Positions 1-12,001 of a stretch of 13,294 bases of DNA are shown here, in pieces (position 1 is the first letter of the stretch; every line of letters begins with the position of its first letter). Below the pieces are notes generated by a model that saw only the letters and a program-made list of their open reading frames with translations, was not told where the DNA came from and did not search any database. The position numbers were made by a program, and so were the translations under genes. This DNA comes from Chlamydiota bacterium (GTDB taxonomy: Bacteria > Auribacterota > Tritonobacteria > UBA1439): positions 1 to 13,294 of the forward strand of contig JBAXOY010000087.1 of NCBI GenBank assembly GCA_037133055.1, in the 5' to 3' direction.

Positions 1-1077
1 GGCGGGTTTGACGTCATCATCGGCAATCCGCCATGGAAAGAGATTTCAACCCTCAAGGGCGAGTACGGCATCAGGAACTACGAGGTGGAAAAGAGCGGAA
101 ACCTCTACGCAGTATGTAGCGAACGATCGTTCGAACTCCTGACCCCAGGTGGTAGCTTCAGCTTCATAGTGCAACTGCCGATCGTGGGGTCTTCGCGTAT
201 GCTGTCACTCCGCGAACACCTGATGGGCCACTCCGCTCACCTCACACTTATGCCGTGTGACGACAGACCGGGCAAGCTCTTTGACGGGCTGCAGCACTGT
301 CGGAATTGCATTTTCGTTGCCAGCAAGCCACATCGCCCCAACAGCAACATGCTATACACGACTCGATACAACCGATGGCCCACGGAGGCACGTGGTTATC
401 TCTTCCCAACGGTACAATACACACGCTTTGACGCGGAACTCATGCAGGGTGTTTTCCCCAAACTGGCCGGGGAGATTCACGCATCCGTCTGCCGTCGGTT
501 TCTCTCACAACCCAAAGGGACGTTGGAAAAGGCTATATCGACGACCCCGACTCATCACTTCATTTTCTATCAGGAAGCGACTCAATACTGGGTCAAAGCC
601 ACGGTAGGCCTGCCATACTACTCGAAGAACGACAAAGTCGCACCGCCTGCTCACGGCCGATTCCTGTACTTTCCAACAAGACCGACGGCACAGGCGGTCC
701 AGGCCATTCTCAACAGCAGTCTCTTCTACACCTATTTCATTGCCTATGGCGATTGCTTCCATTTGAGCGATATACTTGCACGGTCTTTCCCGGCTCCTCC
801 CGCAGCCTTCGATGACCGCGAGTTGCAGAGCCTCGCGAGTGCACTTGGCCGGGACCTTGAAAAGCACGCCAAGCGCACGAAGATCACGACCAAGGACGGC
901 GACACGATCGTTTACGCCGAGTTCAACGTGTCCGACTCCAAACCGATCATCGACGAGATTGACCGGGTCTTGGCGAAGCACTACGGTTTCACGGAAGAGG
1001 AGCTTGATTTTATCATCAACTACGATATCAAGTATCGCATGGGGCAAGAAGTCGATAAAGAGGTCACTGAGGAATGA
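1..1077 (+). CDS. Type IIG / Eco57I-like restriction-modification enzyme, C-terminal part (N6-adenine MTase motif IV plus target recognition domain); 5' truncated
   Basis: Frame 1 is open from base 1 and reads GGFDVIIGNPPWKEISTLKGEYGIRNYEVEKSGNLYAVCSERSFELLTPGG, so the track start at 85 is internal. NPPW is amino-MTase motif IV. It is followed by NLYA..ERSF.LL..GG.F.FIV, LNSSLFY and the C-terminal SKPIIDEIDRVLAKHYGFTEEELDFIINYDIKYRMG typical of fused RM MTases. The endonuclease part is outside the window, so the Type IIG call is inferred. Confidence 0.85.
   Translation, partial: GGFDVIIGNPPWKEISTLKGEYGIRNYEVEKSGNLYAVCSERSFELLTPGGSFSFIVQLPIVGSSRMLSLREHLMGHSAHLTLMPCDDRPGKLFDGLQHCRNCIFVASKPHRPNSNMLYTTRYNRWPTEARGYLFPTVQYTRFDAELMQGVFPKLAGEIHASVCRRFLSQPKGTLEKAISTTPTHHFIFYQEATQYWVKATVGLPYYSKNDKVAPPAHGRFLYFPTRPTAQAVQAILNSSLFYTYFIAYGDCFHLSDILARSFPAPPAAFDDRELQSLASALGRDLEKHAKRTKITTKDGDTIVYAEFNVSDSKPIIDEIDRVLAKHYGFTEEELDFIINYDIKYRMGQEVDKEVTEE
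976..1046 (+). repeat. Direct repeat copy 1: 3' end of the RM gene (KHYGFTEEELDFIINYDIKYRMGQ)
   Basis: Core 1006-1046 (gattttatcatcaactacgatatcaagtatcgcatggggca) matches 3448-3488 at 39/41 nt. The extended hand alignment of 976-1046 with 3420-3488 gives about 60/71 with a 2-nt gap. Confidence 0.95.
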
Positions 1078-3389
1078 ATATTCAGAACAAATCCCATCCT
1101 TTTTCAGCGGATCGCCCCATAAAGACTAGAGCAGAAGATGAGCTCGGCCGTTATGAGTTTGCGCATTCTCTTGCGGAAGCGATTAGGCTCTGGAAGGGAG
1201 AAGATAGTCTCGTCATCGGGCTCTTCGGTCAGTGGGGGCAGGGCAAGACATCCGTCAAAAATATGATCCTGGAGCATTTGCACGATCATAAAGAATTTGC
1301 CCCCTATATCATCGAATTCAATCCCTGGCAATGGAGTGGGCAATCTCAAATCGCGAGTGCATTTTTTGATGAGATTTCGACCACTCTCGGCAGAAATAAC
1401 AGCGAAAAGAATGCAGCCGAAAGGGCGGCTAAATGGCGGCAATGGGCGATACTGCTCAATATTTGCCAACAGACCACAGGTAGTTTAAAGCGCGTTATTC
1501 CGTATATCCTCTGGTTTCTCGCCATTACATGTGGGGTAACCGGATTTATAAACTATCCGATTGTCCGATATATTTCTCGGGGGCTTGCTTCTATCTTTGC
1601 GCTACTAGGAGGCATCCTGCAATGCAGCTCTGGATTGGCGGAGGCTGTAGCAAAATATCTTGAAGAGAAGTGTCGCTGGGGGGCAAAGAAACTGGAAGTG
1701 GTCCATGATGAGTTATGGACATTGATGAATGAACAATCCAAGCCTGTTCTTGTAGTGTTGGATGATATAGACCGTCTTTTGCCCGACGAGATTCGCCTTG
1801 TGTTCCAACTCGTAAAGTCGAATGCCGATTTCCCCAACATGATATATCTGCTCCTGTTTCAAAGGGATTATGTGGAAAATGTCATGGAGCAGGCAATGGG
1901 TGGAAAAGAAATAATCCGCGGGCGAGATTTTTTGGAGAAGATTATTAATGTCGGCTTCGATCTACCGTTGATTGAGCATGTCAAAATTATTCAATTCCTA
2001 AGCAGGCAAATCAACAAAGTATTCCAAAATATAGATATCACGGAAGAAGAAACGCACCGTATGGGGAATATATTTATAGGCGAACTAAGATGCTATTTTA
2101 TTAATTTGCGAGATGTTAAAAGGTTTCTTGGGAGTTTGGAATTCCATCTGAATCTATTGCGGCCCCAAGGAATTCTGGAAGTCAATTCCACTGATCTGAT
2201 CGCAATTGAAACCCTTCGTGTTTTTGAGCCCGGTGTGTATTCAGCCCTCCCTGGAATCAAGTCATATTTAACCGCATCGAGAGAGGGAATAAACGAGAGC
2301 GGAAAGAGCGAAGCGAAAGCAGCCATAGATAGTGTATTGGCAAAATCCTCGAAAGGGAAACAGGAACAGGTGCGATTAATTCTCAAAGCATTATTCCCAC
2401 GGATACAATCAATTTATGGGAATATTGTATTTGGAAACGATTGGGAGGATGATTGGTATCGCGATCGGAGGATATGTCATCAAGATATTTTCAACCGATA
2501 TTTCCTGTTCAGGGTTGCATCGGGAGATGTGTCTCAAGCGGATATAGAACGAATAATGAATAATTCCGGCAATCGTGATGTGCTGGTTGCCGAATTCCGT
2601 TCTTTCAAGAAGCAAGAAATATTTACCGTGCTTCTTGACAGGCTTGAAGCATACAAGCAGAAGATAAGTCTGAATTATGCTGTGCCCTTTATCACGGCCT
2701 TATACGATGTCGGCGATGAACTTCCTGACGAGATAGGGACATCCGTTTTGCTTTCTCCCGAATTGCATGCCATTCGAATAGTCTATTGGTGCCTGAAGCA
2801 GGAACCTGATGAGAAAAAGCGTGGCAAGCTGCTGGTGGAAGCGACGAAGCAAACGACCGGCATATTTCTTCCAACATTCGATGCGCATTCAGAAGATAGA
2901 AAGCGGGCGAAGCAGGATCGCGATGAGTTCCTTGTCGATGAAGAGAGCAGCGAGATTCTGAAGACATTGTGCGTAGAGAAGATTAGACAAGCTGCAGGTG
3001 ATGGATCCTTGGCCACTAACCGGCGGCTCCATTATCTCTTAAGTAAATGGGGCGAATGGGGGCGAGCCGATGAGCCTTGTGAATGGCTCGGGAAGAGGCT
3101 AGAAACACGCCAAGGCCTGTTAGCTGTACTTCTCGCCTTTGTGCATCGTTCAGCGTCACGCACTGAGGGTGCATATATCGACAAAATCCATTGCAAATTT
3201 GATCTTAAAAGTTTGGAAGAATTTGTTTCGGCAGATACAGTAACTGCGGCCATCGGGCATTTAAAAGGCCAAGATCTAACTGATGAACAACGTGAGGCGA
3301 TCGGATGCTTCAAAAAAGCCAAAGCTCGAAAACAGGCGGGTAAGCCGTATGCTTTGGATCAGATATGGCATGATGATAAGGAAGATTAG
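1074..3389 (+). CDS. KAP-family P-loop NTPase with two transmembrane helices (771 aa)
   Basis: N-terminal SADRPI...EDELGR..FA, Walker A GLFGQWGQGKTS, FNPWQWS and Walker B VLVVLDDIDRL, followed by FLEKIINVGFDLP and NLRDVKRF. A hydrophobic hairpin lies between the Walker motifs (VIPYILWFLAITCGVTGFINYPIV; GLASIFALLGGIL). The start overlaps the RM gene stop (ATGA). Confidence 0.93.
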   Translation: MNIQNKSHPFSADRPIKTRAEDELGRYEFAHSLAEAIRLWKGEDSLVIGLFGQWGQGKTSVKNMILEHLHDHKEFAPYIIEFNPWQWSGQSQIASAFFDEISTTLGRNNSEKNAAERAAKWRQWAILLNICQQTTGSLKRVIPYILWFLAITCGVTGFINYPIVRYISRGLASIFALLGGILQCSSGLAEAVAKYLEEKCRWGAKKLEVVHDELWTLMNEQSKPVLVVLDDIDRLLPDEIRLVFQLVKSNADFPNMIYLLLFQRDYVENVMEQAMGGKEIIRGRDFLEKIINVGFDLPLIEHVKIIQFLSRQINKVFQNIDITEEETHRMGNIFIGELRCYFINLRDVKRFLGSLEFHLNLLRPQGILEVNSTDLIAIETLRVFEPGVYSALPGIKSYLTASREGINESGKSEAKAAIDSVLAKSSKGKQEQVRLILKALFPRIQSIYGNIVFGNDWEDDWYRDRRICHQDIFNRYFLFRVASGDVSQADIERIMNNSGNRDVLVAEFRSFKKQEIFTVLLDRLEAYKQKISLNYAVPFITALYDVGDELPDEIGTSVLLSPELHAIRIVYWCLKQEPDEKKRGKLLVEATKQTTGIFLPTFDAHSEDRKRAKQDRDEFLVDEESSEILKTLCVEKIRQAAGDGSLATNRRLHYLLSKWGEWGRADEPCEWLGKRLETRQGLLAVLLAFVHRSASRTEGAYIDKIHCKFDLKSLEEFVSADTVTAAIGHLKGQDLTDEQREAIGCFKKAKARKQAGKPYALDQIWHDDKED

Positions 3390-3419
3390 ATGGTCCATAA
3401 CGAGAACCCAAATAATGTT

Positions 3420-3510
3420 AAGCATTTCGTCTTCAAGGATGAGGATCGATTTCATCATCAACTACGACATCAAGTATCGCATGGGGCAGAATTGAGAGGA
3501 GGAGGATTAG
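3420..3510 (+). pseudogene. Direct repeat copy 2: decayed remnant of an RM gene 3' end
   Basis: Reads KHFVFKDE[2-nt deletion]DFIINYDIKYRMGQN*EEED*, against KHYGFTEEELDFIINYDIKYRMGQEVDKEVTEE* in the intact gene. Both core mismatches are synonymous (TTT/TTC, GAT/GAC). Confidence 0.88.
3496..3505 (+). promoter_or_regulatory. Shine-Dalgarno sequence for the ATPase, formed by the Glu codons of the remnant
   Basis: GAGGAGGAGG ends 8 nt upstream of ATG 3514. Confidence 0.75.
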
Positions 3511-3513
3511 CGT

Positions 3514-4767
3514 ATGATTACTCTCGTTGAAGCACTGAATTATCGTTGTCTCAAATATACAAGCCAAAGGCTGAAGCCTTTTCAGATTCTCGTCGGACCC
3601 AACGCGACGGGGAAAACCACCTTTTTGGATGTCATAGCTTTCCTCGGGGACTTGGTTTCACGCGGTCTTGATTTTGCCGTGTCTCGCCGGGTAAATACGC
3701 CGGCAGACCTGACTTGGTGGAGAAAGGGAGAATCATTCGAGCTCGCGATTGAGGCACTGATTCCGGAAAAGCTTCGCGGGATGTTGGAGAATCCCTCTTT
3801 TGACCGAATCCGATATGAAGTTGCGGTGGGGATGGATGTGGATGGGCAGGGTATCGGTCTCACCAGTGAACGTGTTTTTCTGAAGATGAACGGCGATGAG
3901 ATGGAACCGCCGCGGGATTTATTTCCACATCTTCGGGCTATACCGCGAGCAATACTCTCTCAAAAGGGATTGTCGAAAAAGCGGCAATCAGTCATTGTCA
4001 GCAAGGAACAGGGGGGCAACGAGAATTTCTACCCGGAAACTCCCAAAGGGTATAAGCCCTCTTATCCTTCGAAACCGCGCCGCGTTGCATTTGCGAATAT
4101 TCCTCCGGACGAAAGTAGTTACCCCGTTTCATTATGGTTCAAAGAATATCTCGCTGCGGGCATTCAGCAATTCATTCTCGACAGCCTCGAGATACGCAAG
4201 GCAAGCCCGCCGGGACAGATTTCCGGCTTTAAGCCCGATGGATCGAATATACCGTGGGTAATCGAGCGGCTTAAGGAAACAGACCCGGACAGATTTACGG
4301 AATGGGTTGATCATCTTCAGACTGCCCTGCCTGATTTAGAAGGCCTGCGAACGATCGAACGGAAAGATGATAAGCATCGTTACATGATGCTTCAGTATCG
4401 GGGAGGACTCGAGGTGCCATCCTGGTTGGCATCAGATGGCACTCTCAGACTTCTGGCTTTGACGTTGCCGGCCTATTTAAGGGGCTTTCGAGGCTGCTAT
4501 ATAATTGAAGAACCGGAGAACGGCGTGCATCCTCGTGCCGTGGAGACAGTTGTTCAATCATTGTCGTCTGTTTATGAAGCACAGGTCCTCATGGCGACGC
4601 ATTCGCCAGTCGTGTTGAGCGACGTGAATGCATCGCAAGTTCTCTGTTTCGCGAAGACTCAAGAGGGCGCCACGGACATCGTGCGCGGAGATATGCATCC
4701 GAAATTAAAGGATTGGAAGGGGTCACCAAACCTTTCCGTTCTCTTTGCCGGAGGGGTGCTCGGATGA
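3514..4767 (+). CDS. ABC/AAA_21-type (RecF/SMC-like) ATPase, defence-associated; resembles MADS ATPase MAD3
   Basis: Walker A GPNATGKTT after NYRCL, signature-like SDGTLRLLAL, Walker B/D-loop IIEEPENGVHP and H-loop ATHSP; no TM segments. The MAD3 resemblance is from memory and gene context, not from a search. Confidence 0.88.
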   Translation: MITLVEALNYRCLKYTSQRLKPFQILVGPNATGKTTFLDVIAFLGDLVSRGLDFAVSRRVNTPADLTWWRKGESFELAIEALIPEKLRGMLENPSFDRIRYEVAVGMDVDGQGIGLTSERVFLKMNGDEMEPPRDLFPHLRAIPRAILSQKGLSKKRQSVIVSKEQGGNENFYPETPKGYKPSYPSKPRRVAFANIPPDESSYPVSLWFKEYLAAGIQQFILDSLEIRKASPPGQISGFKPDGSNIPWVIERLKETDPDRFTEWVDHLQTALPDLEGLRTIERKDDKHRYMMLQYRGGLEVPSWLASDGTLRLLALTLPAYLRGFRGCYIIEEPENGVHPRAVETVVQSLSSVYEAQVLMATHSPVVLSDVNASQVLCFAKTQEGATDIVRGDMHPKLKDWKGSPNLSVLFAGGVLG

Positions 4768-5384
4768 TGGACCTCATAGTCCTTGTTCCAGACAGGAATC
4801 TGGAATACGCCGTAAAGGGAATTCTTGCACGACATCAGTCTCTGGGCATTCGTCCCATAACGGTGGAGGTCCTTTCTCATCCGGGGCATGACCCCGGCTG
4901 TTTCGGTGAGTCGCCGGAATTTTTGCAATTTGCCGTGAGACAGGCATCTCATGCATTGGTAGTGTTTGATTATGAAGGCTCCGGTCAGGAGTATCGAATG
5001 AACCGTGTCCAGATGGAGACCGATCTGGAACAACGTCTGTCCGAAGCCGGTTGGAGTGGGCGTTCCGCAGCGGTGATCATTGCCCCTGAACTGGAGAGTT
5101 GGGTATGGAGCGATTCGCCGCATGTTGATATTGTTTTAGGTTGGGAGGGGCGCAGGTCCTCTCTGAGAGAATGGTTGCTCGGACAACACCATATGGGGAG
5201 GACCGCCCCAAAGCCTCCGCATCCGAAAGATGCAATGCTGGCGGCGCTTCGGGAAGCGGGTAAGTCGCGTACGTCGAGACTCTATTCCGCTCTTGCCGAA
5301 AAGGTTAGTCTCGATCGTTGTACTGACGACGCGTTCCTGAAGTTCAAGCGCGTATTGAAGGAATGGTTCGCTGAAGCACCGTGA
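4764..5384 (+). CDS. ATPase partner protein, Toprim/DUF4276/RloB-like; resembles MADS protein MAD4 (206 aa)
   Basis: The likely start is ATG 4764 (or 4767), overlapping the ATPase stop, with GGAGG at 4750-4754; the track start at 4713 is probably too early. Motifs DLIVLVPD, HPGHDPGC, VVFDYEG, IIAPELESWVW and PPHPKDAM fit the acidic Toprim-like partners of ABC ATPases. Confidence 0.7.
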   Translation: MMDLIVLVPDRNLEYAVKGILARHQSLGIRPITVEVLSHPGHDPGCFGESPEFLQFAVRQASHALVVFDYEGSGQEYRMNRVQMETDLEQRLSEAGWSGRSAAVIIAPELESWVWSDSPHVDIVLGWEGRRSSLREWLLGQHHMGRTAPKPPHPKDAMLAALREAGKSRTSRLYSALAEKVSLDRCTDDAFLKFKRVLKEWFAEAP

Positions 5385-5653
5385 TCAGGGATGGGGAAGG
5401 AGTACGGAGAGGAACACGCTACCGGAGGGGAGCACGTCTGGGGGGGGAATAAGCCGTATGTTGGATATGAATTTGAATATGAAGAACATATCATTCCTCT
5501 ATCAATTTATTAGTCTGTAACCTCCTTACCCACGGGGAGATACCCTATCAGCGGAGCTGAACGGAGTAACCGCAATATCGCGCGATTCCGGTCTTTTGCG
5601 CGTGTCGCATTTATAGGGATGAATCTGGGGACATCAGTACCAGGAATCATGTC

Positions 5654-6280
5654 ATGACGGAAATCGTGACCATCCGAAAATCCGATGAGGGGTATCCACA
5701 CGCGCTGCATCGCTATCTTGGGGACCGCGCGCCGGAACAACTCTTCGCCCTCGGCGATATTGCTATTCTCCGGCAGAAGACCCTCGCGCTGTTCTGCTCA
5801 GTCAAGTGCCCCGGCAACATCATCCTCAAAACATACGATCTCGTCAGGGAGTTGCGCGACGCCGGGATCAGCGTCATAAGCGGCTTTCATTCGCCGATGG
5901 AGAAGGAATGCTTCGATCTTCTCCTACGGGGGCAACAGCCGGTTCTCTGGTGTCCGGCTTTCCGCGTGCCCGCGAAACGCCCGCGCAAGAAGTATACCGA
6001 GGCGCTATCGGATAGTCGGCTTCTTATTGTGTCGTGCTTCGGTGATACAATCCAACGGGCCAGCGCCGAAACAACCCGTATCCGCAATGATATTGTTGCC
6101 GCGTTATCCGACAAGATTTTTGTCGCGTACGCCGACCCGGACGGAAAAATCATAGGGTTTTGCCGGCGGATGATTGATATGGAGAAACCGCTCCTTACTT
6201 TTGATATGCCCGCCAACGCGGTCCTTCTTTCCATAGGTGCGCGGCCATGGAACGGGATCGCTTCTCTCGGTGGCGATTGA
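5654..6280 (+). CDS. Short DprA/Smf-like protein (DNA_processg_A, SLOG superfamily), Rossmann domain only
   Basis: YP..L...APEQLFALGDIAIL, LALFCSVKCP, VISGFHSPMEKE and RNDIVAALSDKIFVAYA...G mirror the DprA core. At 208 aa it lacks the N-terminal SAM and C-terminal winged-helix domains. Confidence 0.78.
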   Translation: MTEIVTIRKSDEGYPHALHRYLGDRAPEQLFALGDIAILRQKTLALFCSVKCPGNIILKTYDLVRELRDAGISVISGFHSPMEKECFDLLLRGQQPVLWCPAFRVPAKRPRKKYTEALSDSRLLIVSCFGDTIQRASAETTRIRNDIVAALSDKIFVAYADPDGKIIGFCRRMIDMEKPLLTFDMPANAVLLSIGARPWNGIASLGGD

Positions 6281-6317
6281 TTTCTATACGGCTGTCGGGG
6301 GCCTATCGGGGTTGGAC

Positions 6318-6911
6318 ATGTCCATATTTCGCCGACTGAAGAGAGAGATGCCGGAGGGTAATTCCGGGGTAGATCCCGTTCAATCGCTCGCCGATCTAAT
6401 CGGCCGCGAGGGGCGCGGGCTCCGCGAATTTGAGCTACGGGTTCATTTCGCGGGCGAGGGGAAACTCGCTCATCCCGACCGGAATGATATCCATCTTGAG
6501 GTGGCGGGGAGGGAAGTCATCTGGCGCGTGGAAACGCTTCGGGAGCTTTTTCGCGGCGACAAGCATCCGCCGTCCGAGAGCGGGATGGAGCATTATCCGG
6601 AGGAATACGTTCCATTTTTCGCGGTCGTGGAATACAACCTCGTGTCCGCCTGCGAATATTTCCACGATCCGACCGATGCGGCAATATTGGATGTGTACAC
6701 CCTGATGCGGAGACGACCGGACGCTAAAAGCGTCGGCGCAGCGCACCATGTCGTCTGGCAGGCCGCCGCTCTTGCCCTTGGAGTCGCGCCTTTCAGCGAG
6801 GCGGAGTATCAGGCCGTATTCTCCCAGCTTGCCCGTTCCGCGAGACACTGGGAAATGGGCCCTTCATCCCGGAACTATATCGATTACCTTCGGACTTCTT
6901 TTGCCGAATGA
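6318..6911 (+). CDS. Hypothetical protein (~197 aa)
   Basis: Co-oriented ORF with globular-looking composition. ATG 6318 (MSIFRRLKRE) avoids the overlap with the upstream gene that the track start at 6237 would create. No family recognised. Confidence 0.65.
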   Translation: MSIFRRLKREMPEGNSGVDPVQSLADLIGREGRGLREFELRVHFAGEGKLAHPDRNDIHLEVAGREVIWRVETLRELFRGDKHPPSESGMEHYPEEYVPFFAVVEYNLVSACEYFHDPTDAAILDVYTLMRRRPDAKSVGAAHHVVWQAAALALGVAPFSEAEYQAVFSQLARSARHWEMGPSSRNYIDYLRTSFAE

Positions 6912-7123: not shown

Positions 7124-8311
7124 ATGGGACGGGGAAAGGGGGAGCGGGTGCCGAAGGGTTCGAGGCGCAGCGGGATAGACCGCAGAATACAGTGCCCGGG
7201 CAGACTCCCCGCGCAGCCGATGAAGAAACTGGTCGCGCGGCACGGCTCGCCGCTCCTCGCGGTCAGCCGATCCGCCCTCCGCGCCCAGGTCGCCCGCTTC
7301 CGCCGCGCCCTCCCGCGGGTCGAGCCGTTCTACGCCATCAAGGCGAACCCGCACCCCGAAGTATTAAAAACCGTGGTCGCGGCGGGCACGGGGTTCGACG
7401 TCGCCTCAAGGGCGGAGCTCGAAGCGGTGCTCGCCGCGGGGGCGGACCCCGAGCGCGTCATCTTCGCCAACACCATAAAACCCGCCGCCTCAATCGCCGC
7501 GGCCGCCCGCAGGGGCGTCACCCTCACCACCTTCGACAGCGAGTACGAGCTCGACAAGATCGCCGCACGCGCCCCGGGGGCGCGGGTGATCGTCCGCATC
7601 AAGGTCCCGAACGTGGGCTCGATCGTCGAGCTCAGCCTCAAGTTCGGGGCGGACCCCTCGGACGCCGTGCCGCTCCTCATCAAGGCGCATCGGCTGGGAC
7701 TCAAGCCCGCGGGGGTGAGCTTCCACGTCGGGAGCCAGTGCACCCATTCCGGGAACTACGTGGACGCGCTCGAGATGGCGTCCATCATCATCCGCGACGC
7801 GAAGCTGAAGCAGCTCCCGCTCGATATTCTCGACATCGGCGGCGGCTTCCCGATCCGGCATTACGACTCCGACGAGGACACGTTCGAGAAGACGGCCGGG
7901 GTGATCCGGCGGGAGATCGACCGCCTCTTCGACCGGAACCTCCGCATCATCGCCGAGCCGGGGCGATTCATCGCGGGCCCCGCGGCCGTGCTCGTGATGC
8001 GGGTGGTCGGAAAGGCGATCCGCGAGAGCAAGCACTGGTACTACCTCGACGACGGCGTGTACGGGGCCCTCAGCGGACTCATCTTCGACCACGCGAAGTA
8101 CCAGTTCAAGGTCCTGAGGGCGGGGCGCCGGCAGCTCTCGACGCTCGCGGGCCCGACCTGCGACAGCCTGGACATCATCGCGCGGGGGGAGGACCTTCCC
8201 GAGCTCGAGATCGGAGACATCGTCTACGCCGAGAACACCGGCGCCTACAGCGTCGCGAGCGCCACGAACTTCAACGGCATTCCGCCCGCGCGGGTCGTGA
8301 TGGTGAAGTAA
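7124..8311 (+). CDS. PLP-dependent ornithine/lysine decarboxylase (fold type III, group IV)
   Basis: PFYAIKANP (PLP lysine), GFDVAS, SLKFGA, SFHVGSQ, LDIGGGFP, IAEPGRF, YYLDDGVYG, GPTCDSLD and GAYS...TNFNG. Cys-Asp rather than Cys-Glu favours ODC or L/ODC over DAP decarboxylase. The start is uncertain: 7124, 7148 (GTG) or 7220. Confidence 0.92.
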   Translation: MGRGKGERVPKGSRRSGIDRRIQCPGRLPAQPMKKLVARHGSPLLAVSRSALRAQVARFRRALPRVEPFYAIKANPHPEVLKTVVAAGTGFDVASRAELEAVLAAGADPERVIFANTIKPAASIAAAARRGVTLTTFDSEYELDKIAARAPGARVIVRIKVPNVGSIVELSLKFGADPSDAVPLLIKAHRLGLKPAGVSFHVGSQCTHSGNYVDALEMASIIIRDAKLKQLPLDILDIGGGFPIRHYDSDEDTFEKTAGVIRREIDRLFDRNLRIIAEPGRFIAGPAAVLVMRVVGKAIRESKHWYYLDDGVYGALSGLIFDHAKYQFKVLRAGRRQLSTLAGPTCDSLDIIARGEDLPELEIGDIVYAENTGAYSVASATNFNGIPPARVVMVK

Positions 8312-8341
8312 CGTCCACCGCGCCAAAGAAATATACGTTCG

Positions 8342-8359
8342 ACACAGATGAACACAGAT
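8342..8359 (+). repeat. Short tandem repeat ACACAGAT x2 (10-nt period)
   Basis: acacagat-ga-acacagat in the AT-richer spacer between the decarboxylase and speY. Confidence 0.6.
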
Positions 8360-8385
8360 AAAGAAAATGGAAAGGACCTTCTGAC

Positions 8386-9549
8386 ATGAAACGCACGCAC
8401 CGGCCGCGCGAAAACAACTCCGAGCTCCCCGACTGGATGCGGGGCAAGAAATGCCCCCACAAGTCGCGCTACCTCTCGGGCAAGAGGATCATGCCGAAGG
8501 GGATCACCGGGAAGGAGAAGCTCGAAGACCTGATGCGGGAGACGTTCCTCGCCTACAACTCCGCGCGCCTGATGGAGGGCTGTCGGCTCTACGCGCAGAA
8601 GATGCTCGAGCCCGACGTGACGGTGGGGATGAGCCTCGCGGGGGCCCTCACCCCGGCGGGGCTGGGCTGCTCCTGCGTCGTGCCGCTCATCAAGGCCGGC
8701 TTCGTGGACTGGATCGTCGCCACCGGCGCGAACCTCTACCACGACCTGCACTTCGCCTTCAACCTGCGGCTCCACGCCGGGAGCCACCTGGTCGACGACG
8801 CCGACCTTCGCAAGAACGATGTGGTCCGCATCTACGACGTCCTCCTCGGCTACACCGACTGCCTGATGGCGACCGATGAGATCCTCCGGGGCATCCTCGT
8901 GCAGCCGGAGTTCCAGCGCGAGATGGGCACGGCCGAGCTGCATTGCCTGATCGGGGCGTACGCGGCCGAGTGGGAGAGGAAGGCGGGTCTAAAAGATGTC
9001 TCCGTCCTCGCCGCCGCCTACCGCGCGGGCGTCCCCGTCTACACCTCCTCCCCCGGGGATTCCACCATCGGGATGAACGTCGCGGGGGTCGAGCTCCGCG
9101 GGAACAAGCTCCGCCTCAACCCCTCCGTCGACGTGAACGAGACGACGTCATTCGTGCTGGCCGCGAAGCGCTCCGGGGGGAAGAGCGCCGTGGTCCTCAT
9201 GGGCGGCGGGAGCCCCAAGAACTTCATGCTCCAGACCGAGCCGCAGATCCAGGAGGTGCTCCGCATCAAGGAGGTGGGACAGGACTATTTCTTCCAGGTG
9301 ACCGATGCCCGGCCGGACACCGGCGGCCTCTCGGGCGCGACGCCCCACGAGGCGGTGAGCTGGGGCAAGGTGGACCCGAGCCGTCTCCCGGACGCCGTCG
9401 TCTGCTACACGGACACGACGATCGCCCTCCCCATCCTGACGCACTATGTCCTCGCAAGCCGCCCGAAGCGGAAGCTCCGCCGGCTCTACGACAAGAGGGC
9501 CGCCCTGATGGAAGCGCTGGTGAGGGAGTATTTTGCGCACAACAAATAG
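8386..9549 (+). CDS. speY: Deoxyhypusine synthase-like protein, probable homospermidine synthase
   Basis: [53 protein letters not shown] and [24 protein letters not shown] (catalytic Lys), closely matching the cyanobacterial SpeY subfamily as I recall it. AAGGA RBS at 8372-8376; adjacent to a diamine-producing decarboxylase. Confidence 0.9.
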
Positions 9550-9595
9550 AGATGTGTCCACCCCCGCCTCGGGGGGGGTAGATAAAAATATTCTG

Positions 9596-9623
9596 TTGAC
9601 ACCCTGCGGGGATGAGATATACT
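9596..9623 (+). promoter_or_regulatory. Sigma70 promoter of the cold-shock gene
   Basis: TTGACA (9596-9601), 16-nt spacer, TATACT (9618-9623), preceded by an AT-rich UP-like tract (ataaaaatatt). Confidence 0.75.
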
Positions 9624-9658
9624 ACCCCCGTACAGTGCAGGCAGGCTTAGAAGTCTTG

Positions 9659-9695
9659 AACCGCAAGGTGAAGATGTCTAAACCTTGCGGTTTTT
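9659..9695 (+). terminator. Intrinsic terminator-like hairpin within the csp 5' leader (attenuator candidate)
   Basis: Perfect 11-bp inverted repeat AACCGCAAGGT (9659-9669) / ACCTTGCGGTT (9682-9692) with a 12-nt loop; T run at 9691-9695. Confidence 0.65.
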
Positions 9696-9743
9696 CAGCA
9701 TACGGCCTTGTCGCCGGTACAGCAAAAAGGAGGCGTGAACGCC

Positions 9744-9944
9744 ATGCCGAAGGGCAAAGTAAAGTGGTTCAGCAATCAGAAGGGATACGGCTTCATCACT
9801 TCCGAGACGGGCGGTGACGTGTTCGTGCACCACACCTCGATCCAGGGCGAAGGGTACAAGAGCCTGGAAGAGGGTCAGGAAGTCGAGTTCGAGATCGAGA
9901 AAGGCCCCAAGGGAGACAAAGCCACCCGCGTAGTCCCCCTGTAA
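9744..9944 (+). CDS. cspA: Cold-shock protein, CspA family (66 aa)
   Basis: [18 protein letters not shown] (RNP1), DVFVHH (RNP2), [15 protein letters not shown] and KGPKG. AGGAGG RBS at 9728-9733 gives ATG 9744 as the start. The symbol denotes the family, not a specific orthologue. Confidence 0.96.
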
Positions 9945-9959
9945 TTCTTCCCCGTGGAT

Positions 9960-9994
9960 GGGCCCGACCGGCAACGGCGGGCCCTTCCCCTTTC
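9960..9994 (+). terminator. GC-rich hairpin after csp (GCAA tetraloop), possible terminator or stabiliser
   Basis: GGGCCCG-A-CCG-GCAA-CGG-CGGGCCC (9960-9984), followed by pyrimidine-rich TTCCCCTTTC, a weak U tract. Confidence 0.5.
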
Positions 9995-10009
9995 GAGGCG
10001 CTTTCGCAC

Positions 10010-10052
10010 GCCGGTCCCGCGGGAGTTTGACGCGCACCGGCTTCTTTTCTTT
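10010..10052 (+). terminator. Second terminator-like hairpin upstream of typA
   Basis: GCCGGT (10010-10015) / ACCGGC (10036-10041) with an inner CGCG/CGCG pairing, followed by TTCTTTTCTTT. Confidence 0.45.
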
Positions 10053-10093
10053 ATCCGTAACGCCGCGCCGACGCTCGCGCGGGGAACGCACCC

Positions 10094-12001
10094 ATGACAC
10101 CCGCAGACAAGATACGCAACCTGGCGATCATCGCCCACATCGACCACGGAAAAACCACGCTGATCGACTCCATCTTCCGCGCCGCGCACGTGTTCCGCAA
10201 GAATGCCCGGGTCGAGGAGCGGGTGATGGACAATAACGAGCTCGAGAAGGAGCGCGGCATCACCATCCGCGCCAAGCACTGCACGGTGGAGTGGAACGGG
10301 TACCTGATCAACATCGTGGACACCCCCGGCCACGCCGACTTCTCCGGCGAGGTGGAGCGCGTCCTCTCCATGGTCGACGGGGTGCTGCTCCTCGTCGACG
10401 CCATCGAGGGCCCCATGCCCCAGACGCGCTACGTGCTCATGCGGGCGCTCAGGCTCGGCCTGCGGGTCGTGGTGATCATCAACAAGGTGGACCGCCCCCA
10501 GGCGGACACGCTCCGCGCGCTCAACAAGACCTTTGACCTGTTCGTCGAGCTCGGGGCCAACGACGCGCAGGCGGACTTCCCGGTGCTCTACGGCTCGGGG
10601 CTCGAGGGCTGGTTCGTGAACGATCCGGACCTCGAGGGCCCGCGCGGCATGGACTCCCTCTTCGAGAGCATCGCCGCGCACGTGCCGCCCCCGCCGGTCG
10701 AGCGCGACACCCCGTTCCGCATGCAGGTGAGCACCCTCGCATGGAGCGACTACTTCGGGCGGATCGGGTGCGGGCGCGTCCTTCAGGGCGTCCACCGCCT
10801 GGGCCAGCCCCTCGTTCGGACGATGACGAAGTGGACGCACGACGCGTCGGCCGAGCCGGCCGCGGGACACGGCTCGCGCGAAGGATCATGGGAGGTGGTC
10901 GGCAGCGAGCAGGCGGTCTCCGCGCACCTCTGGGTGACGCGGGGGCTCGATCGCAGGGAGGTGCCGGAGGTCTGCGCCGGGGACATCGTCTGGATTGCCG
11001 GCCCCGAGGAGATCGCGATCGGCGACACCTTTTCCGCGCCGGAGTTCGAGTCGCCCGCCCTGCCGCCGCTCGAGATCGGCGAGCCGACGGTCTCCATGTT
11101 CTTCCTCGTCAACAGCGGCCTTCTCTCGGGGCGCGAGGGGTGCGCCGTGACCATGCGCCAGATCCGGGAGCGGCTCGACCGCGAGGAGCGCGTCAACGTC
11201 TCGCTCCGGGTCGAGGAGACGGGGCGCGCGGACCGGATGAAGGTGTCCGGCCGCGGCGAGCTCCACCTCGCCATCCTCATCGAGGAGATGCGGCGGGAGG
11301 GGATGGAGCTCTGCGTGACGCGCCCGGAGGTCATCACCTCGCGGGACAGGGCCGGGAACGTCCTCGAGCCGATGGAACACCTGGTCATCGACGTGCCCGA
11401 GGAGTTCCAGGGGGTCGTGCTCGAGAAGGTCTCCCGGCGGAAGGGCGAGATGACCGCCATGCACGACAACGGGCGGGGCATCATCAGGCTCGATTTCCGG
11501 ATCCCGACGCGCGGCATCATCGGCTACCGGAACGAGTTCCTGACGGACACCCGCGGCCTCGGCATTATGTCGTCGCGCTTCACCGGATACGGCCCCTGGT
11601 GCGGGGACATCGCCTCCCGCAACCGCGGCTCCATGATCAGCATGGACACCGGGCCGGCGACCTCCTACGCGCTGAAGAACCTCCAGGTCCGCGGCACGCT
11701 CTTCGTCGCCCCGATGGATCCGGTCTACGCGGGGATGGTCGTAGGCGAGTACTCCCGGCCCGAGGACATGCCCTGCAACCCGACGAAGAAGAAGCACCTC
11801 TCGAACTGCCGCTCGTCCACGAAGGAGCTGTTCGAGGGACTGAAGGTCCCCCGCAACCTCACGCTCGAGAGCGCGATCGAATGGATCGCCGTCGACGAGC
11901 TCGTCGAGGTCACCCCGAAGTCCGTCCGCGTGCGGAAGGCCATCCTCGACGCCGAGCAGCGGAAGAAGTCGGGGCGGAAGATGGTCGCAACGGGAAGCTG
12001 A
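10094..12001 (+). CDS. typA: Translational GTPase TypA/BipA
   Basis: G1 [18 protein letters not shown]2 EKERGITI, G3 [14 protein letters not shown] and G4 NKVD; also [20 protein letters not shown] and the C-terminal [15 protein letters not shown]. Confidence 0.96.

Follow-up and report, generated by a model that had tools for sequence, protein, structure and literature searches.

The end of a Type IIG-like adenine methylase gene is likely to serve as an integrase-free joint where recombination brings in defence genes and shuffles them. In the window, which is the whole 13,294-nt stretch of DNA that was analysed, a KAP-family gene was probably added as cargo behind this methylase gene, by recombination that homology in the conserved last ~45 bp of the gene would have driven, and the old gene end was stranded downstream as a relic (Table 1). 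Directly supported are the observation of the empty site in the genome of a sister species, the recurrence of the arrangement in many phyla, and the reassortment of the DNA to the left and right of the repeated core.

Table 1. Features around the duplicated methylase gene end in the window.
Feature	Position	Strand	Basis
Type IIG-like adenine methylase gene, 3' third	1..1077	+	PADLOC PDLC03628 E 1.8e-64; Pfam Eco57I
Left arm of core copy 1, coding KHYGFTEEEL	976..1005	+	copy comparison
Core copy 1 (DFIINYDIKYRMG), putative crossover zone	1006..1046	+	copy comparison and locus comparisons
New tail of methylase	1047..1077	+	differs from G002 tail; overlaps KAP start
KAP-family P-loop NTPase, PifA-like, 771 aa, cargo	1074..3389	+	PF07693 E 1.7e-38; PADLOC PifA E 1.4e-82
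Spacer, 30 nt, without likeness to methylase end	3390..3419	+
Left arm of copy 2, decayed (7 substitutions, one 2-nt gap)	3420..3447	+
Core copy 2, relic	3448..3488	+	copy comparison
Resident old tail: TGA at 3493, old stop TAG at 3508-3510, then 3-nt spacer	3489..3513	+
MAD3 AAA ATPase, older cargo	3514..4767	+	NCBIfam NF047739, 494 bits (cut-off 420)
MAD4 protein, older cargo	4767..5384	+	NCBIfam NF047734, 203 bits (cut-off 160)
DprA-fold gene, short; usually bounds the variable slot on the right	5654..6280	+	PF02481

An earlier note on this DNA had described a duplicated methylase 3' end whose second copy has decayed flanks, and this description holds. The two cores are identical at 39 of 41 nt (95%) with a spacing of 2442, and both mismatches, in a Phe and an Asp codon, are synonymous. 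Similarity extends leftward to positions 976 and 3420, the 2-nt gap falling after 3445, and the TGA at 3493-3495 is a premature stop. The left arm differs at 8 of 30 positions and the core at 2 of 41 (p 0.014, with a boundary picked post hoc). The note's observations of an ATGA overlap between the methylase stop and the KAP start (1074-1077) and of an AT-rich KAP gene were reproduced as well. The GC content of KAP is 0.452, compared to 0.542 for the methylase part, 0.511 for MAD3 and 0.644 for the genome, where only 4 of 1201 segments of 2.3 kb are as low. Excision performed in silico produced the predicted methylase gene ending in YRMGQN followed by the stop. No excised junction or circle was found in the contigs of eight low-depth runs, a weak test because such contigs omit rare variants. 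A scan for internal promoters found 8 promoter-like sites, compared to 4.8 +/- 2.2 in shuffled sequences, with one 9/12 site over copy 1 (988-1016) and none over copy 2.

The methylase is about 1110 aa at full length and comprises an NPPW motif, a specificity region and a conserved C-terminus. By tblastn with G002 proteins, its 5' part and an upstream PLD-SNF2 helicase gene were traced to two other contigs of this assembly, C167 and C165. The methylase in the window matches the PDLC03628 profile, to which a full-length relative scores 1105 bits, and possesses amino-methylase motifs. From this match and these motifs it is predicted to be a Type IIG-like R-M enzyme with nuclease and methylase in one chain, although the nuclease role may instead belong to the upstream PLD-SNF2 protein. 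The KAP protein has a P-loop domain with Walker A and B motifs and two hydrophobic membrane segments near residues 141-190, and its profile match points to a predicted anti-phage role in phage exclusion.

The empty site is found in G002, a sister species of the same genus. Its island consists of genes for the helicase, the methylase, MAD3, MAD4 and the DprA-fold protein, with a single core copy and MAD3 directly after the methylase. A Type-2 BREX-related system was considered and rejected for this island, as the core locus in the accessible text of PMC12839542 includes a DUF499 ATPase and a stand-alone DUF3780, while G002 has only the five genes named. Up to the core, the G002 methylase gene is 87% identical to that of the window at the nucleotide level, and both have one and the same allele of the specificity region. 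The G002 tail resembles that of copy 2, whose layout at 3489..3513 it shares and which contains a purine-rich stretch that is likely a ribosome-binding site; the copy 1 tail differs. Because G002 represents an empty site with a tail like that of copy 2, KAP appears to have entered behind the methylase and shifted the old end downstream, ahead of the MAD3 and MAD4 cargo common to both. The new tail likely came with KAP, since it is unlike the G002 tail and overlaps the KAP start. Divergence of ~13% from G002 means that the crossover cannot be placed exactly. Thus, the earlier proposal that KAP was inserted and the old 3' end displaced stands, but the methylase segment thought to have entered with it need comprise only the last ~10 codons, given that both genomes share the specificity allele.

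The recurrence of extra copies was assessed in 79 long GTDB loci picked by the core pattern; copy counts omit 43 short loci (L094-L136, <=632 nt) and count the duplicate row L035 once. Picking loci in this way inflates core conservation and favours multi-copy loci. Two or more copies were present in 13 of the 79 loci by HMM and additionally in L029 by blastn, giving 14 of 79 from many phyla. Among loci with an upstream methylase and at least 9 kb downstream, 7 of 35 were multi-copy (8 including L029). All 11 extra copies adjoining an intact end lie downstream on the same strand. A short relic was present in 25 of 79 loci by rule, or 23 after removal of L068 (a split end) and L074 (a longer decayed gene). 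Internal breaks in L016, L041 and L068 were rejected as relics because their ORF layout resembles IS insertions. The genes among the extra copies are toxin-antitoxin, defence or unknown genes, including ApeA, GmrSD-HEPN, HicAB, MNT-HEPN, PIN and Schlafen as well as proteins without a Pfam or PADLOC match. The core search across genomes that the note had proposed supports the methylase terminus as a joint used repeatedly for defence cargo of various kinds. Based on a tool estimate, ~1300 stored GTDB stretches carry the motif.

Duplication appears to be specific to the gene end. None was found for 13 other conserved windows of the methylase (43-52 loci matched each), and the reversed-locus control gave a best E of 0.047. 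Seven loci on viral contigs had one copy each. When the search was extended to another methylase family with a 29-aa query of low sensitivity, 9 of 121 genomes had one match each and arrays were absent, so the generality draws on L053, L021 and L027 only. A general repeat census, dominated by REP-like and protein-repeat families, contained 228 other and 19 core pairs among the matches listed, and its use was limited to core extents and to L029 and L053.

The tail is also associated with KAP in other genomes. Within the KAP clade of the window, a tail copy precedes six of seven relatives, three of these weakly, and lies behind four of seven, compared to 0 of 16 relatives outside the clade. Taken singly, the tail matches before KAP are weak in L178-L180 (E 0.17-0.82), and L179 does not differ from L180. 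L183 has the same layout as the window, with DarTG behind the relic.

Comparison of the copies provides further evidence about where recombination occurs. In Poribacteria, a shared family of the next gene goes with more similar tails (0.67 versus 0.45), and a shared family of the preceding gene with more similar left arms (0.59 versus 0.45), although these loci are kin selected for several copies and the figures are not independent tests. The same arms and tails recur there in new combinations. Because DNA on either side of the core reassorts in this way, crossovers inside the core seem likely. The ELDFIINYDIKYRMG stretch is the gene's most alike 45 nt between distant alleles (0.82), a ranking that is partly circular. 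The synonymous excess of the core ranks third of 29 windows, after two from the catalytic region, so that any DNA-level constraint on the core is weak and not unique. The codons of extra copies have undergone 38 non-synonymous and 24 synonymous changes.

These observations are consistent with a mechanism in two steps. In the first, donor DNA with a different gene after its methylase would be anchored through homology to the 3' region of the methylase gene, with an illegitimate join forming just within the resident gene end; only joins giving a whole gene would survive, and a relic would be made. In the second, every relic would be a ~45-bp homology handle for later exchange, by which a unit of tail, cargo and left arm could be inserted, deleted, duplicated or swapped. 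This could proceed by RecA-type or annealing recombination, either core to core or from the methylase to the DprA-fold gene downstream; for RecA, 45 bp is short. The tail would provide start signals for the cargo, and new genes would therefore be expressed with the operon. The second step fits the window slightly better than the first, because the left arm of the relic is more decayed than its core.

A one-off duplication or an assembly artefact, both raised by the earlier note, now has practically no probability and is regarded as refuted. While the assembly is broken into 191 contigs and the core also occurs in other organisms of these lake runs, a single contig of run X1, possibly the source, covers 108-6304 with zero differences, contigs of four further runs (X2, X3, X4 and X6) bridge copy 2, and two of these runs, X3 and X6, also have contigs across copy 1. 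In L177, 1604-5997 recurs at 99.98% identity, copy 2 is itself the only other significant match in the 3-Mb genome (E 2e-15), and extra copies recur in 14 of 79 loci. It is unlikely that the repeat arose by an insertion that duplicates a long target, in which foreign DNA is used to repair a break close to the end of the methylase gene, a copy of the resident end is left on either side, and selection retains only events that keep the methylase whole. Such events are described in the accessible text of PMC2853133, and a duplication of more than 30 bp, the empty site, the lack of a mobile gene and the variable repeat edges would all agree with one, as would the extension of the duplication 73-97 nt past the core into downstream DNA in 5 of 30 extra copies (L020, L025, L139, L148 and L149) and likewise in L058; tandem copying would suit the five cases equally well. 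However, the two tails of the window differ, that of copy 1 overlaps the KAP start, a tail also stands before KAP relatives elsewhere, and tails move together with cargo. Moreover, the helicase gene shows no duplicated end where other genes have been inserted after it: the helicase-methylase gap exceeds 500 nt in 13 of 33 helicase genes, but the helicase 3' end, matched in 41 loci, gave only one weak second match (E 0.04).

It is quite improbable that proteins of the operon drive the exchange, with the DprA-fold protein annealing strands or loading RecA at the core and the helicase-nuclease supplying ends. The variable slot is usually flanked by the methylase on one side and a DprA-like gene on the other; the latter is present in 53 of 79 loci and downstream on the same strand in 51. 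The structure model (pLDDT 95.7) has the DprA Rossmann fold and matches DprA and ShosA with TM 0.76-0.81, and ShosA binds ssDNA and RecA according to the available part of PMC12961424. A single-sequence PDB search with the DprA-like protein gave no match. Identity to DprA, however, is only 16-20%, and the score is far under the dprA cut-off TIGR00732. The gene is not associated with extra copies (4/8 versus 20/30, p 0.43), and a defence role alone could explain its place. That the core is the att site of a site-specific recombinase encoded elsewhere is very unlikely. The duplication does restore the methylase 3' end, as in tRNA-end islands, one Ile codon is preferred at three core sites (84/105 versus 401/806 in the same context), and a resolvase fragment lies ~1 kb upstream of one two-copy locus in G063. 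Nevertheless, the left edges of 30 extra copies range from -75 to +14 nt (about 90 nt), and their right extents from 2 to 97 nt; later erosion could have blurred a fixed edge in such copies. PF00589 tyrosine recombinases were absent within 50 kb of arrays, or on shorter contigs, in 11 genomes, and PF00239 was absent from G000 (92% complete) and from four of five array genomes. The earlier note had seen no recombinase in the window, and indeed no site-specific recombinase was found on its contig (C87), on the upstream contigs C165 and C167, or in the G002 island. Given the variable left edges, the decayed copies and the lack of a linked tyrosine recombinase, the att-like site suggested by the note is not upheld, and homology-driven capture and shuffling at the methylase end, resembling sequential (C-terminal) displacement arrays, remains the preferred reading.

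In integrons and 3'-end islands, cassettes gather behind a fixed point and the target end is restored. The methylase end is similar in both respects, and upstream expression signals are likely used. Unlike integrons, it has no linked integrase, no fixed crossover point and no clear ageing from near to far, distant copies often being less decayed (L061, L157 and L169). For T6SS effector-immunity arrays of Vibrio cholerae, homology-facilitated illegitimate recombination has been proposed, and the accessible text also cites Rhs and CDI orphans as displacement arrays and likens arrays to integrase-free integrons (PMC5361080). As described there, entry is by homology to a conserved upstream gene and displaces the former 3' end together with the genes behind it; in the window, the old 3' end and MAD3 are likewise kept behind the new module, and both the copy 2 tail and MAD3 match G002. 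In the T6SS arrays of that text, the incoming DNA consists of the anchor's variable tip and the cognate immunity gene. In contrast, the methylase can keep its allele, as in the window, where the module did not replace the variable domain; the relic is the gene's most conserved part; and the cargo consists of unrelated defence or toxin-antitoxin genes. The incoming module does replace the variable domain in L053, L088 and L090.

The insertions of Furuta, Abe and Kobayashi (2010; PMC2853133), as far as the accessible text describes them, share a direct repeat of more than 30 bp of variable length, a single copy at the empty site, and a short insert (<20 kb) without a mobility gene; the corresponding values here are 41-71 nt, 2442 bp and a single copy in G002. 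However, R and M genes form the insert in that text and the targets are unique sequences, whereas here the insert is KAP only and the R-M gene is the recurrent target, its end being reused across phyla and repeatedly per locus. In the lpl cluster of Staphylococcus aureus, recombination at a conserved coding core also sets the exchange unit, which runs core to core rather than over a whole ORF (Tsuru and Kobayashi, 2008; PMC2568036). The lpl units in the available text are all paralogous genes, while in the present arrays a live gene contains the first core alone and the genes carried by the units are unrelated. No prior description of methylase-end relics was found in the literature searched.

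Overall, the one-at-a-time gain of defence island genes without an integrase has so far been poorly explained. There is a slim chance that the operon is itself an integrase-free collector of defence genes in many phyla, its own DprA-fold protein and helicase-nuclease actively capturing and reshuffling cassettes at the 45-bp joint; if true, integron-like arrays would be built at a joint hidden in the last codons of a methylase. As the joints are marked by a 45-bp coding motif, genome sequences can be used to work out in what order insertions occurred, which donors they came from and which sites are empty, and a simple reporter offers a way to test the mechanism. The motif also provides a search handle, and the unmatched cargo proteins are candidate new defence genes.

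The direct repeat described in the earlier note was confirmed. The core, the conserved last ~45 bp of the methylase gene, recurs at a spacing of 2442 with 39/41 nt identical, and both mismatches are synonymous as claimed there. Copy 2 is the sole other significant match to the methylase end within the 3-Mb assembly. The reported decay of its flanks was also found, with 7 substitutions and a 2-nt gap in the 30 nt of the left arm (the DNA left of the core) and a TGA at 3493, as was the AT-richness of the KAP-family NTPase gene (KAP, PifA-like): its GC is 0.452, whereas the neighbouring genes have 0.542 and 0.511 and the genome as a whole 0.644.

Downstream of the methylase lie, in order, KAP, the relic (the leftover extra copy of the gene end), MAD3, MAD4, a short DprA-like gene and an unknown ORF. 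The order of contigs C165, C167 and C87 (the window) was set by homology to G002, a genome of the same genus, with contig overlaps of 0 and 10 nt. MAD3 and MAD4 exceed the NCBIfam cut-offs; no remainder of a MADS operon is present, and their neighbour is a different methylase system. The unknown ORF, which separates the DprA-like and decarboxylase genes, is not present in G002 and has no match in Pfam, PADLOC or NCBIfam; contigs of three lake metagenome runs end inside it, at 6476 and 6676.

Coordinates of the features in the window and at related loci
Feature	Position (strand)	Contig or locus	Remarks
Type IIG-like methylase		C87	window begins inside gene
Methylase 5' part and PLD-SNF2 helicase		C167 and C165	
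Core copy 1	1006-1046	C87	
Core copy 2	3448-3488	C87	
MAD3 and MAD4	3514-5384 (+)	C87	
Unknown ORF	6237-6911 (+)	C87	224 aa
Housekeeping block	7124-12001	C87	PLP decarboxylase, deoxyhypusine-synthase-like gene, cold-shock-like ORF (by eye), TypA/BipA
Transporter-like ORF (by eye)	2-1423 (reverse)	C165	between phoU-like flank and helicase; no counterpart at same place in G002
KAP behind whole methylase		L181, L183	
KAP behind relic		L197	E 0.01
KAP behind decayed relic		L178-L180	E 0.17-0.82; L179 and L180 identical
Array of relics (Treponema)	about 8260-17950	L053	three different methylase ends

The methylase end was matched in 2/60 relatives searched. G002 carries the helicase, methylase, MAD3, MAD4 and DprA-like genes with a single core copy and without KAP. 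Its methylase DNA is 87% identical to that of the window up to the core, specificity region included, and the match picks up again at 3436. The tail (the DNA right of the core) in G002 is like that of copy 2 and unlike that of copy 1. This empty site therefore indicates that KAP and a new tail of ~10 codons were added, and that the tail of copy 2 is the old methylase end. Loss of KAP in G002 instead of gain is formally possible; the two core copies must have come from an addition at some point. In three genomes of the window's family, the whole island is missing between the same flanking genes.

A metagenome scan for KAP relatives gave 24 loci, counting the window itself (L177). Seven relatives (42-45% identity) group with the window; a tail copy precedes KAP in six of these and a relic follows it in four, while L182 has neither. 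Outside this clade, no adjoining relic was found (0/16 loci). L183 is arranged like the window, its relic being followed by DarTG and a DprA-like gene, and the stop-start overlap of methylase end and KAP also occurs in L183 and L197. KAP is a resident of this slot.

An exact degenerate scan for the core, covering 6/64 parts of the GTDB genomes, gave at least 123 stretches, which extrapolates to about 1300. Among 79 distinct loci with long flanks, 13 had at least two copies by an HMM of the gene's last 93 nt, and L029 was added by blastn. Where the methylase lies upstream with at least 9 kb downstream, 7/35 loci have an extra copy (8 counting L029), and every extra copy next to an intact end is downstream on the same strand (11/11). 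Short relics, with or without a methylase gene nearby, occur in 23/79 loci (two rows dropped). Host groups include Chloroflexota, Desulfobacterota, Cyanobacteria, Nitrospirota, Spirochaetota, Ignavibacteria and Poribacteria. None of 13 other conserved methylase windows is duplicated (43-52 loci per window), nor is the helicase end across 41 loci, where the single second match had an E of 0.04, even though the helicase-methylase gap exceeds 500 nt for 13/33 helicase genes. Duplicated methylase ends are real and general. The varied defence cargo anticipated at such sites was found between or directly behind copies, among sets of 67 and 16 selected ORFs: MNT-HEPN, HicAB, PIN, Schlafen, RecG-like, GmrSD-HEPN, ApeA, DarTG and OLD, besides several proteins with no match.

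In the L053 array, the end of the locus's own methylase gene is duplicated at a distance of 3.2 kb downstream. A single IINYDIKYRMG relic is also present, as are several copies of an end from another family, with GmrSD-HEPN, ApeA, DUF2971, PIN and DUF3368 as cargo. L021 and L027 carry relics of a further methylase family's end. A ~23-nt REP-like palindrome occupies the same insertion point in the relic core in unrelated genomes (the second copies of L017 and L058, and L197 near 3290). In runs X2, X3, X5, X7 and X10, another lake organism has the core joined to a left flank that is unrelated, which represents a further relic (loose ends at 3453).

In Poribacteria, the phylum of G061, the methylase end was matched in 68/121 genomes, and a count by eye gave 17 of the 68, G061 included, with at least two copies on the same strand within 11 kb. 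In 38 stretches, mostly chosen for several copies, and 6 earlier loci, arrays contain the same cargo families in differing orders. Tail identity is 0.67 (74 pairs) when the next gene is of the same family versus 0.45, and left-arm identity is 0.59 (63 pairs) when the previous gene is versus 0.45; the genomes are kin, making these figures descriptive. Left arms are not associated with the next gene (0.45, 6 pairs). Moreover, two tails (L157 copy 3, L169 copy 2) share a single left arm, and each of them is also found with another arm (L061 copy 3, L161 copy 2). Arms and tails reassort on either side of the core, which points to exchange inside it.

Four Poribacteria genomes (G164, G171, G098, G082) hold 4-7 dispersed methylase gene copies each; the specificity regions differ, and no integrase was found beside those checked. 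A split in the methylase frame, always at the same place just ahead of the NPPY motif, is seen in all 7 copies in G171 (L141-L147) and the 3 whole copies in G098 (L150-L152), and also in L043 and L044; it may reflect a natural split gene or a programmed frameshift. Recurrent cargo with partial or no annotation in L061, L157, L159, L160 and L162-L169 comprises a block of three genes (274, 151 and 181 aa) that match nothing in Pfam or PADLOC, one protein of ~142 aa that is also without a match, another of ~545 aa, and a TPR-Schlafen protein of 515 aa. These are candidate defence genes.

The att-like site proposed in the earlier note was not upheld. In 30 extra copies from 24 loci, left edges range from -75 to +14 nt and right extents from 2 to 97 nt, and 38 codon changes are non-synonymous versus 24 synonymous. 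In the 11 genomes searched, the arrays have no tyrosine recombinase nearby, the nearest being 56 kb away where contigs are long and otherwise on other contigs. Serine recombinases were not found in G000 (the window's assembly) or in 4/5 array genomes; G063 has 18, among them a fragment some 1 kb away from a locus with two copies. Codon use for Ile in the core is unusually uniform, a hint in favour of site-specific recombination, but the core's synonymous excess is only third among 29 windows, and this explanation is improbable. Of all 45-nt stretches, the core is also the one in which distant alleles agree best (0.82, next 0.81; in part a result of how loci were picked), and as the last such stretch of the gene it is where homology-led exchange would end.

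Duplication of the target in place is unlikely. It is slightly more doubtful that the helicase-methylase-DprA operon itself captures and reshuffles cassettes as an integrase-free collector, and operon-driven exchange is a shade less likely again. The DprA-like protein has a DprA fold, and its gene, present in 53/79 loci, gives the slot a conserved anchor on its right; the gene's presence is no predictor of extra copies (4/8 versus 20/30). An artefact is scarcely credible: copy 2 is bridged in four runs (X2, X3, X4 and X6) and copy 1 in two of them (X3 and X6), and a contig of X1, possibly the source run, covers 108-6304 without change. No joint skipping KAP was seen in the lake-run contigs, all of low depth.

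The observed addition, recurrence, specificity to the methylase end and reassortment at the core probably reflect a one-sided, homology-anchored insertion. Such an insertion would leave a relic of the old methylase end, and relics may then serve ordinary recombination as short handles; for this mechanism we infer the enzymes, the DNA route and cargo expression from the operon. Differences number 8/30 in the window's left arm versus 2/41 in the core (p 0.014, boundary post hoc), as expected if KAP arrived with an old arm. The closest published cases are displacement arrays (PMC5361080), long target duplication (PMC2853133) and lpl clusters (PMC2568036); the system of PMC12839542 does not fit the helicase-methylase operon. 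Repeated methylase ends bounding cargo were not found described in full-text literature lying mostly outside subscription journals and supplements. This locus contributes the empty site, the cargo clade followed across taxa, the helicase-end control and the reassortment at the core. The phenomenon is related to already known kinds of system, in a new form.
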